This document shows, in pieces, positions 53,288 to 55,342 of a DNA stretch of 64,000 nucleotides. The first letter of the stretch is position 1. Every line of letters begins with the position of its first letter. The DNA comes from an uncultured Chloroflexia bacterium (lineage in GTDB: Bacteria; Chloroflexota; Dehalococcoidia; DSTF01; JALHUB01): positions 981,789 through 1,045,788 of the forward strand of contig OY970386.1 of the NCBI GenBank assembly GCA_963719465.1. Direction: 5' to 3'. The notes below the pieces were generated by a model that saw only the letters and a list, made by a program, of their open reading frames with translations, was not told where the DNA came from and ran no database searches. The translations under genes were made by a program, and so were the position numbers.

Positions 53288-53346
53288 CCAGACCGGAGGG
53301 AGCCACCATGGCGAAGGTAATCGGAATCGACCTGGGAACAATATGA
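53288..53346 (+). repeat. duplicated copy of the dnaK RBS/start (encodes [12 protein letters not shown]-stop) followed by a 20-nt perfect hairpin
   Basis: 53288..53340 is ~85% identical to 53429..53481. Hairpin CTGAGGGT-TGAA-ACCCTCAG at 53353..53372. Confidence 0.7.
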
Positions 53347-53448
53347 GCAGTTCTGAGGGTTGAAACCCTCAGCCTTTCCTGAAGCTGCGGCACTGAAGTG
53401 AGACGGAGCCGCTGACCCAAGACACATCTCCAACCGGAGGACATCATC

Positions 53449-55342
53449 ATGGCGAAGGTAATTGGAATCGACCTGGGAACCACTAATAGCTGCGTTGCCG
53501 TCATCGAGGCGGGCGAGCCCACCGTCATTCCCAACAGCGAAGGCGGGCGCACCACGCCGTCGGTCGTCGCCGTCAGCAAGTCGGGAGAGCGGCTCGTCGG
53601 CACGGTGGCCAAGCGTCAGGCCATCACGAACCCCGACAATACGATCTACTCTATCAAACGCCTCATGGGGCGCAAGTTCGACGACCCGGAGGTGGAACGC
53701 GACAAGAAGCTGCTCGCCTACAAGATCGCGCAGGGCCCCAACAACGACGCCCACGTCATGCTGGGCGGCCGCGACTACTCGCCGGCGGAGGTATCCGCCA
53801 TGATCCTCCAGAAGCTGAAGACCGACGCGGAAGCCTACCTCGGCGAGACCGTGACCGAGGCGGTTATCACCGTCCCGGCCTACTTCAACGACAGCCAGCG
53901 CCAGGCGACGAAGGACGCCTGGCAAGATCGCAGGCATGGAGGTGCTGCGCATCATCAACGAGCCGACCGCCGCGTCGCTGGCCTACGGCCTCGACAAGAA
54001 GGCGGAGGAGACTATCGCCGTCTACGACCTCGGCGGCGGCACCTTCGACATCTCGATCCTCGAGATCGGCGAAGGGACGTTCCAGGTCAAGTCGACCAGC
54101 GGCAACACGCACCTCGGCGGCGACGACTTCGACCAGCGCATCATCGACTGGCTCTGCGACGAGTTCCGCCGCGACCAGGGGATCGACCTGAAGCAGGACC
54201 GGATGGCGTTGCAGCGCCTCAAGGAGGCCGCGGAGAAGGCGAAGGTGGAGCTTTCCTCCGTCCTCCAGACCGACATCAACCTGCCGTTCATCACCGCCGA
54301 CGCTTCCGGCCCCAAGCACATGAACATCATGCTCAGCCGCTCGAAGCTGGAGCAGCTCGTCGGCGAGCTGGTCGAGAGCACGCTGGGCCCGTGCAAGCAG
54401 GCCCTCTCCGACGCCGGCATCACAGCGTCGCAGGTCGACGAGGTGGTCCTGGTCGGCGGGCAGACGCGCATGCCGATGGTGCAGGAGACGGTGCGACAGC
54501 TCTTCGGCAAGGAGGCGCACAAGGGCGTCAACCCGGACGAGGTCGTAGCCGTCGGCGCGGCGATCCAGGCCGGCGTCCTCAAGGGCGAGGTGCACGACGT
54601 CCTGCTGCTCGACGTGACGCCGCTCACGCTCGGCATCGAGACGCTCGGCGGCGTGGCGACGCCCCTCATCCAGCGCAACACGACGATACCGACCAGCAAA
54701 AGCCAGACGTTCAGCACCGCGGCCGACAACCAGCCCAGCGTCGAGATTCACGTTCTCCAGGGCGAGCGGACGCTGGCGTCGGACAACAAGTCGCTGGGGC
54801 GATTCATTCTCGATGGCATCCTGCCGGCGCCGCGCGGCGTCCCGCAGATCGAGGTGACGTTCGACATCGACGCCAACGGCATTCTCAACGTCTCAGCCCG
54901 CGATAAGGCGACCGGCCGCGAGCAGAAGATAACGATCACCGCCGGCTCCGGCCTGAGCAAAGAGGAGGTCGAAAAGCTACAGCGCGAGGCGGAGTCGCAC
55001 GCGGAAGAGGACCGCCGCCGCCGCGACGAGATCGAGACGCGGAACACGGCGGATAGCATGGCCTACAACGCCGAGAAGGTCCTGCGCGACCAGGGAGAGC
55101 GCATCCCGGCGGAGATAAAGAGCGAGGTCGAAGCAAAGATCGCGGCCCTGCGCCAGGTCCTGCCTTCCGGCACAGTCGAGCAGATACGCAGCGCCATGAA
55201 CGAGCTGTCGGAGTCGATGCAGAAGATTGGCGCCGCGGCTTACGGGCAGGACGGCGGCCAGCAGCCTCCGCCGGGCGCCGAGGGCGAGGGCCAGGCGCCG
55301 CCGGAGGAAGGGACCGTCGAGGGCGAGTACCGCGAGGTGTAG
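53449..55342 (+). pseudogene. dnaK: molecular chaperone DnaK (Hsp70) with a +1 frameshift near 53913 (assembly error or pseudogene)
   Basis: The N-terminal 155 aa are canonical ([18 protein letters not shown]...). AAGGACGCCTGGCAAGATCGCAGGCATGGAG differs from the expected ...GACGCCGGCAAGATCGCAGGCATGGAG by one inserted T. Downstream, ORF 53936..55342 continues as canonical DnaK ([12 protein letters not shown]...). Confidence 0.9.

Follow-up and report, generated by a model that had tools for sequence, protein, structure and literature searches.

A REPIN-like hairpin element separates two copies of the dnaK start in an uncultured Dehalococcoidia bacterium and belongs to a family with recurrent gene-end duplications

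We analyzed a 64,000-nt stretch of DNA from an uncultured Chloroflexia bacterium (GenBank assembly GCA_963719465.1, contig OY970386.1, positions 981,789 to 1,045,788 of the forward strand; hereafter the window), a soil-type Chloroflexota/Dehalococcoidia genome with the gene order hrcA-grpE-dnaK, in which the Hsp70 gene dnaK is preceded by a second copy of its own start. Separating the two starts is a non-autonomous hairpin element of about 80 nt, similar to a REPIN (an inverted pair of repetitive extragenic palindromes, REPs) and related to a minimal IS200/IS605-type element of soil and sediment Dehalococcoidia. The hairpin is a dispersed mobile element associated with an IS200/IS605-type Y1 transposase, and the architecture of an element accompanied by a duplicated gene end recurs at other loci, with the differences between the copies biased to silent sites. 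The kind of element is known; the recurrent gene-end duplication signature is unusual. On balance, we lean toward the reading that the element came with the 5′ piece of a diverged dnaK allele and integrated by homology, and that a frameshift further into dnaK is a separate and likely technical matter. Contigs and loci of relatives or metagenomes compared with the window carry L-numbers; the closest public genomes, as judged by GrpE, are L004 (82% identical) and L001 (78%).

The sequence-only reading had noted a duplicated dnaK start, comprising the ribosome-binding site (RBS) and the first 11 codons, about 140 nt upstream of the gene. Indeed, the two copies, which we call A and B, match at 50 of 56 aligned positions (local alignment score 77 versus at most 25 in 20 shuffles), and their ATGs at 53308 (A) and 53449 (B) are 141 nt apart. 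They differ at seven sites: one deleted G, five of the eight positions between the RBS and the ATG, and a silent ATC to ATT change in codon 5. At all seven, copy A has the state found in L001, L004 and L005, and copy B is derived. The window segment 53136-53339, which includes copy A, is 85% identical to the sequence directly upstream of L001 dnaK, and the upstream regions of L004 and L005 give shorter matches to the window spacer. Because copy A is continuous with this conserved upstream region and holds the ancestral state throughout, it is the native, resident dnaK start, and copy B, with its leader GGAGGACATCATCATG...GTAATTGG, is derived or foreign. The dnaK sequence that extends from 53421 is 91-92% identical to L001 and L004. 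The real dnaK start is the second ATG, and the short open reading frame (ORF) that begins at the first is a by-product of the insertion. A simple tandem duplication of a 141-nt unit was considered and rejected, as 53198-53282 has no similarity by eye to the spacer 53340-53424.

The element occupies the window from the filler at 53340 to about 53420. Its perfect 20-nt hairpin, CTGAGGGT-TGAA-ACCCTCAG at 53353-53372, had been described from the letters alone and is present as described; it occurs once in the window (chance expectation 0.02) and folds as DNA with -7.7 kcal/mol (z = -3.2). The stretch between hairpin and ATG had been taken for some 70 nt of unrelated sequence. It spans 53373-53448: the first ~50 nt contain a degenerate second hairpin (53384-53415), which folds weakly (-6.4 kcal/mol, z = -1.8), and copy B begins at 53425. 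The suggestion that the layout is the footprint of a small insertion is borne out in outline, a dispersed mobile hairpin element lying between the two dnaK starts. Viral contigs contained neither the 23-mer of the hairpin nor the leader of copy B, and an Rfam scan returned chance-level matches only. We also considered the spacer as the grpE tail of an L002-like donor, and rejected it: what matches the L002 grpE end, TCTGAGGGTTGA, is the dispersed hairpin itself, and the dnaK body resembles L001 and L004 (91-92% identity) rather than L002 (85%). In L002 a decayed copy of the hairpin element (885-907) encodes the last residues and stop codon of GrpE (..SEG-stop), and the grpE end of L005 may hold a further-decayed remnant at the same place. 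The coordinates of the features are collected in Table 1.

Table 1. Features of the dnaK start region, in window coordinates. UTR, untranslated region.
Feature	Position	Strand	Description
Native grpE-dnaK spacer	53136..53282	+	Conserved stretch ...gctatcattagatt..., a putative -10, immediately 5′ of copy A
Copy A	53283..53339	+	Native dnaK 5′ UTR mini-hairpin (CTCC..GGAGG), RBS, ATG and codons 1-11; ends after GGGAAC
Short upstream ORF	53308..53346	+	12 codons; TGA at 53344-53346; last two codons and TGA from the filler beside the element
Filler	53340..53347	+	aatatgag, separating copy A from the conserved element core
REP-like unit	53348..53375	+	CAGT + TCTGAGGGTTGAAACCCTCAGCC + T; exact 23-mer; perfect 8-bp stem and 4-nt loop at 53353-53372
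Degenerate second inverted REP	53384..53415	+	GCTGCGG-...-CCGCTGA; decayed doublet with the first REP
Copy B	53425..53480	+	5′ UTR mini-hairpin, RBS, ATG and first codons of the full-length dnaK
dnaK (Hsp70)	53449..55342	+	Intact but for one extra base; 631 aa after repair
Extra T	53920	+	GAC GCC t GGC AAG, +1 shift; window-only column in a 9-sequence alignment

A search for further copies of the spacer and hairpin, which the sequence-only reading had proposed for the genome, found none elsewhere in the window. A metagenome scan yielded 41 contigs, 36 of which contain the exact 23-mer TCTGAGGGTTGAAACCCTCAGCC between unrelated flanks. The conserved unit consists of C-N-G-T, the 23-mer and a T; across 38 contexts there is no conservation to the left of position -4. 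In many copies the first REP is followed, some 25 nt further on, by a variant in inverted orientation (the reverse complement of TCTGCGGGATGAATCCCGCAGCC), and the two form REPIN-like doublets. These are intact in L080, L085, L086 and L094 and, as judged by eye, in L054, L069 and L091; L095 has a doublet too.

At four loci (L071, L063, L076 and L087), two inverted hairpin copies bracket a 128-aa ORF and lie exactly 464 nt apart, hairpin to hairpin. The encoded protein matches Pfam Y1_Tnp (E = 1e-22) and passes the NCBIfam IS200/IS605 model NF033573 (71.4 bits versus a cutoff of 55), whereas it stays below the cutoff of the RAYT model NF047646 (34.6 bits versus 80). Its closest solved structures are ISDra2 TnpA, the best match, and the IS608 transposase. 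Its homologues are named IS200/IS605 transposases of Dehalococcoidia, and nearly all protein clusters are confined to a single contig. A DNA methyltransferase gene always follows within 10 nt of the Y1 gene, and the pair is found within an arginine operon in L095, within a pyrimidine operon in L096 and next to a TIR-domain gene in L071; given these different settings, the unit moves. In L095 (9966-12145), L096 (8942-10390) and L071, the two-gene unit of Y1 transposase and N6/N4 DNA methyltransferase is punctuated by hairpins, and the L095 methyltransferase is fused to a region with a faint Pfam match to restriction-endonuclease-type domains.

For each hairpin we compared the 250 nt to its left with the 900 nt to its right and assessed repeats against shuffles. 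Significant direct repeats flank the element in the window and at six other loci: L055 (64 nt), L056 (85 nt), L069 (33 nt), L071 (44 nt), L086 (42 nt) and L087 (39 nt), with scores in these six of 46-105 versus at most 28 in shuffles. Every flanking repeat spans a gene start or stop codon. The L056 left copy retains the native ATGA overlap between the stop of the upstream gene and the start of trpD, the L069 left copy lies just 3′ of tacaat, a possible -10, and the repeats of L055 and L086 are gene 3′ ends that include the stop codon. Across loci the duplicated genes include dnaK, trpD, a methyltransferase gene and a dprA-like gene. At the other duplicated loci, an unconserved filler of 4-21 nt separates the left copy from the conserved unit. 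The left junctions end in GAAC, ATGG, CATG and CGTC, with no common target motif. All seven duplicated genes lie on the strand of the hairpin motif, consistent with a strand-specific process. L096 contains three copies of the methyltransferase 5′ end together with relics of an older and diverged copy, a Y1 3′ end and a hairpin, a layout that indicates repeated integration at the same homologous spot.

The differences between the copies fall mainly at silent sites. Over the seven pairs, 20 of 25 differing codons are silent and five are not, and 22 of 28 differing bases occupy third positions. This excess has a binomial probability of 2e-4 against a generous null of 43% silent changes, our own estimate for target duplication followed by drift of one copy, and of 1e-8 against 25%; none of 20,000 simulations of random mutation reached the count. 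One of the two silent codons in the window straddles the breakpoint, and discounting it leaves 19 of 24. All six differences at L086 are silent, TAA versus TGA among them. The copies therefore resemble diverged working alleles, which argues against a target-site duplication in which one copy has drifted.

How could a gene end come to stand on both sides of such an element? IS200/IS605 elements excise as single-stranded circles, the transposition intermediate of the family. The element would leave a site beside a conserved gene carrying a short piece of that gene, which at dnaK would be about 57 nt from the 5′ end of a diverged allele (5′ UTR, RBS and 11 codons), and would integrate by homology into a resident, element-free dnaK rather than by simply cutting into the gene. 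The route could be a single crossover of the excised circle, or a one-ended, homology-anchored integration with an illegitimate join at the other end; either would place the homologous piece at each flank of the element while dnaK stays whole. Single-crossover integration of a circle with a short homologous piece duplicates that piece (PMC3240628). Copy A would then be the resident start, now cut down to an ORF of 12 codons that ends at a TGA within the filler, and copy B the incoming one, which would drive dnaK translation; the circle junction is predicted to join ...CTGGGAAC to AATATGAGCAGTTCTGAGGG. We infer this mechanism of integration, and an origin of copy B in another lineage, from the comparisons above. 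In L002 and L054 the element lies about 100-120 nt upstream of dnaK, so donors of such a kind exist. A donor tract extending inside dnaK was rejected: the share of window-specific substitutions is 9 of 89 over the first 95 nt and 0 of 90 over the following 95 nt.

More tentatively, such elements may spread between Dehalococcoidia lineages in this manner, a few dozen captured gene-end bases guiding homologous integration into the same gene of an element-free genome while leaving it intact. The footprint to expect would be a repeated gene start or stop, with mostly silent differences between its two copies, and the process would account for the entry of elements into the ends of essential genes such as dnaK without death of the host. 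The spread of REPs has been described as still unresolved (PMC8266576); if the duplications are scars of homology-driven integration, they offer a concrete and testable route for the spread of REP-type repeats.

The main rival, which we regard as rather unlikely, is that the duplication was made when the element inserted after dnaK codon 11, by staggered breaks or by replication template switching at the hairpin, and that the copies then diverged in place with partial gene conversion. A version of this idea, in which the insertion duplicated about 50 bp of target, was part of the sequence-only reading. It would fit with repeats that directly flank the element at seven loci and with the clustering by locus of the L071 and L087 copies, as gene conversion would give, and a 23-nt hairpin that stays unchanged at ~12% divergence is possible by chance (about 7%, our own estimate) or through selection. 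However, the silent share expected is at most about 43%, against the 80% observed, and in the window the functional copy B shows the derived state at all seven sites, the cut-off copy A being unchanged. A target-site duplication made by a transposase should moreover be of fixed length, begin with identical copies and gather differences that are random with respect to codon position, whereas the repeats vary between 33 and 85 nt and silent changes account for 20 of the 25 differing codons. About 30 contexts, among them the transposase-methyltransferase unit and a doublet in L095, lack any duplication, and target duplication is not reported in the REPIN/REP literature that we searched. To our knowledge, it has not been reported for IS200/IS605 elements either. 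A chimeric assembly that joins two co-occurring strains at the dnaK start would explain why the two copies look like different alleles and would sit well with the several probable consensus errors in the window. We consider it improbable, as the same architecture is present in six contigs from different metagenomes and, on direct reading, the join from codon 11 to the filler and hairpin offers no shared sequence to mislead an assembler.

Several observations weigh against import by homology as well. A duplication accompanies the element in only 7 of about 38 contexts. Of the coding differences behind the silent-site statistic, no more than one or two come from the window. The duplications of L071 and L087 are orthologous and have a common filler, GGGGAACTAT, but the two copies within each locus resemble each other more than they resemble those of the other locus; a single import event does not predict this clustering, which points to a requirement for gene conversion too. 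The donor lineage was not found, and the enrichment of substitutions at the beginning of dnaK is weak (9 of 89 in the first 95 nt versus 92 of 1717, p = 0.09, not significant). The Y1 gene and further copies of the element were not found in the 64-kb window. In the search for assemblies of the same species, the top GrpE match among 5.8 billion proteins is 81% identical, and an exact-protein look-up with the C-terminal ORF of dnaK returned no match. For the frameshift, finally, the extra T in dnaK does not extend a homopolymer, unlike the other three single-base insertions. We nevertheless retain import of a diverged allele end as our preferred reading.

The expression of dnaK can be considered on the same footing. 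The sequence-only reading had proposed that the upstream copy might be a decoy start and that expression of the main Hsp70 was potentially compromised. The second proposal is doubtful: copy B has an intact RBS and ATG, no terminator-like site was predicted in the scanned interval 53050-53520, and an error in the consensus is the simplest account of the frameshift. The same interval yielded no consensus sigma-70 promoter, and the window no CIRCE, the operator of HrcA; the -10 assigned in the native spacer is putative and follows from conservation only. Transcription of dnaK probably begins upstream of copy A and proceeds through the short ORF and the hairpin. A functional decoy start or leader peptide, in which ORF and hairpin form a selected device that attenuates or couples dnaK translation, appears highly improbable to us. 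The ORF does keep a good RBS and ATG, its stop lies 6 nt ahead of the stable hairpin, and the pairing of the CTCC..GGAG stem with the RBS is kept in both copies. Against this, none of the 20 related grpE-dnaK loci that we compared has a second start encoding GIDLGT upstream of dnaK, the hairpin is a generic dispersed element, the interval holds no predicted terminator-like site, the 188-nt leader folds no better than its shuffles (z = +0.47), and no Rfam match was obtained. A regulatory role for the upstream ORF is not supported. The small stem, CTCC-(A)GACC-GGAGG (53286-53300 and 53428-53441), is conserved upstream of dnaK in L001, L004 and L005 as well; its CTCC arm pairs with the dnaK RBS in the manner of an RNA thermometer, but its predicted stability is weak.

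The inserted T that shifts dnaK by +1, already recognized from the letters alone, is absent in all eight relatives of the alignment, and its deletion restores an uninterrupted 631-aa DnaK. In tblastn comparisons with the L001 and L004 proteins, residues 7-168 are 94-95% identical in one frame and residues 169-641 97% identical in the next. Programmed ribosomal frameshifting was rejected, since GAC GCC T GGC contains no slippery motif and the T is not conserved in any of the eight relatives. Comparable insertions occur in other genes of the window. A window-only T at the hrcA 3′ end (52435/6, GAT[T]CTC, seven codons before the stop) fuses hrcA and grpE into a 478-aa ORF (51671-53107), and its removal restores the ending ...LLMGDLVAQG-stop seen in relatives. 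A SIMPL/DUF541 gene on the minus strand carries a +1 insertion at about 9184 (within ~9177-9189) that distributes the two Pfam halves (model positions 1-95 and 101-205) over two overlapping ORFs; without one base it encodes 276 aa. Another +1 insertion lies at about 55910 in an ORF of the island that follows dnaK. A further frameshift is probable at ~27400-27450 on the minus strand in an SH3-domain gene (ORFs 27141-28388 and 27137-27508), where a 415-aa ORF turns to nonsense near its end, and a Pro/Thr linker and a bacterial SH3 domain follow in the overlapping frame. Some five single-base insertions within 64 kb suggest errors in the consensus.

Given these insertions and the otherwise good conservation of dnaK, we regard an error of consensus or assembly, unrelated to the element, as the most likely source of the T at 53920. 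A true inactivation of dnaK, either by a very recent mutation or in an organism that relies on another Hsp70, is in our judgment unlikely. It can draw on the presence of the T in the sequence outside a homopolymer run, and on a locus disturbed twice more, by the element upstream and by a 1.1-kb island downstream. Yet the 631 codons hold no other lesion, protein identity is 94-97% on both sides of the shift compared with a nucleotide identity of 92%, and at least three other genes in the 64 kb bear a +1 insertion of this type. For annotation, the frameshift should not be taken as loss of Hsp70 until reads confirm it. The island (55343-56451), between dnaK and the next gene, is absent in L001 and L004; removal of one G near 55910 yields a single 360-aa ORF with a weak match to the abortive infection protein AbiTii (E = 1.3e-3) and no Pfam domain.

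Among known systems, the REP/REPIN-RAYT systems (REPtrons) share with the element a short, dispersed extragenic palindrome, inverted doublets and a Y1 (HUH-type) gene bracketed by inverted hairpins; both the doublets (L080, L085, L086, L094 and L095) and the flanked Y1 gene agree with a REPIN. The transposase differs: it falls short of the RAYT model while satisfying the IS200 one, and its gene, accompanied by that of a DNA methyltransferase, is found in more than one operon; a score of 34.6 bits where the RAYT model asks for 80, and the varied operons of the Y1 unit, do not fit the single-copy, vertically inherited RAYT clade. Moreover, only one copy is present in the 64 kb, although the unit is dispersed across 36 contigs, and long gene-end flanking duplications are not mentioned in the REPIN/REP literature that we searched. 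With IS200/IS605 insertion sequences and their miniature derivatives, the palindrome-associated transposable elements, the element has in common the Y1 family, hairpins just inside both ends and a minimal size of ~0.5 kb. The autonomous relatives encode an IS200-type Y1 protein, though the gene is absent from the window, and the end hairpins lie 464 nt apart at four loci; in the window element, one of the two is perfect and the other decayed. IS200/IS605 elements insert beside a fixed 4-5-nt target and do not duplicate it. About 30 contexts would fit this behavior, whereas the junctions share no motif and seven loci have repeats of 33-85 nt. The element also departs from the family in that its end hairpins are mutually inverted copies.

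The proposed integration also resembles homology-facilitated illegitimate recombination and Campbell-type integration, which likewise involve one short homologous anchor, a duplicated piece and filler at the non-homologous junction. Those processes were described with laboratory transformation or conjugation substrates, not with a transposon-derived element, and the duplicated lacZ pieces of 109-950 bp represent longer anchors than those seen here (PMC3240628). In Rhs/type VI secretion effector loci, an incoming diverged module is anchored by a conserved part of the gene, and orphan remnants of the old end are left behind (PMC5361080). The L096 layout resembles such an anchored serial displacement with remnants, of which the effector loci would be a larger-scale analogue, although they exchange kilobase toxin-immunity modules without a hairpin element or transposase. 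Some integrative elements rebuild the gene that they enter: SXT in the prfC 5′ end, for example, supplies a substitute gene end and leaves the displaced end as an imperfect repeat. As in our loci, the target gene stays functional and the displaced end persists; unlike them, SXT-type elements rely on a tyrosine or serine integrase and always enter at a single attachment site, where we observe varied genes and no integrase.

The grpE-dnaK spacer also contains a second dispersed repeat family (...CCTGGGGTGTCCCCCAGAAG..CCTTCCTGGGCGGGCCGGGTGGGAAG) at 53163-53210, which may extend over ~53120-53215. It occurs at the same site in L001 and L054 and at other sites in L082, L089 and L096, with no Rfam match. 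L082 has two 111-nt copies of this second family, separate from the duplications that accompany the hairpin element.

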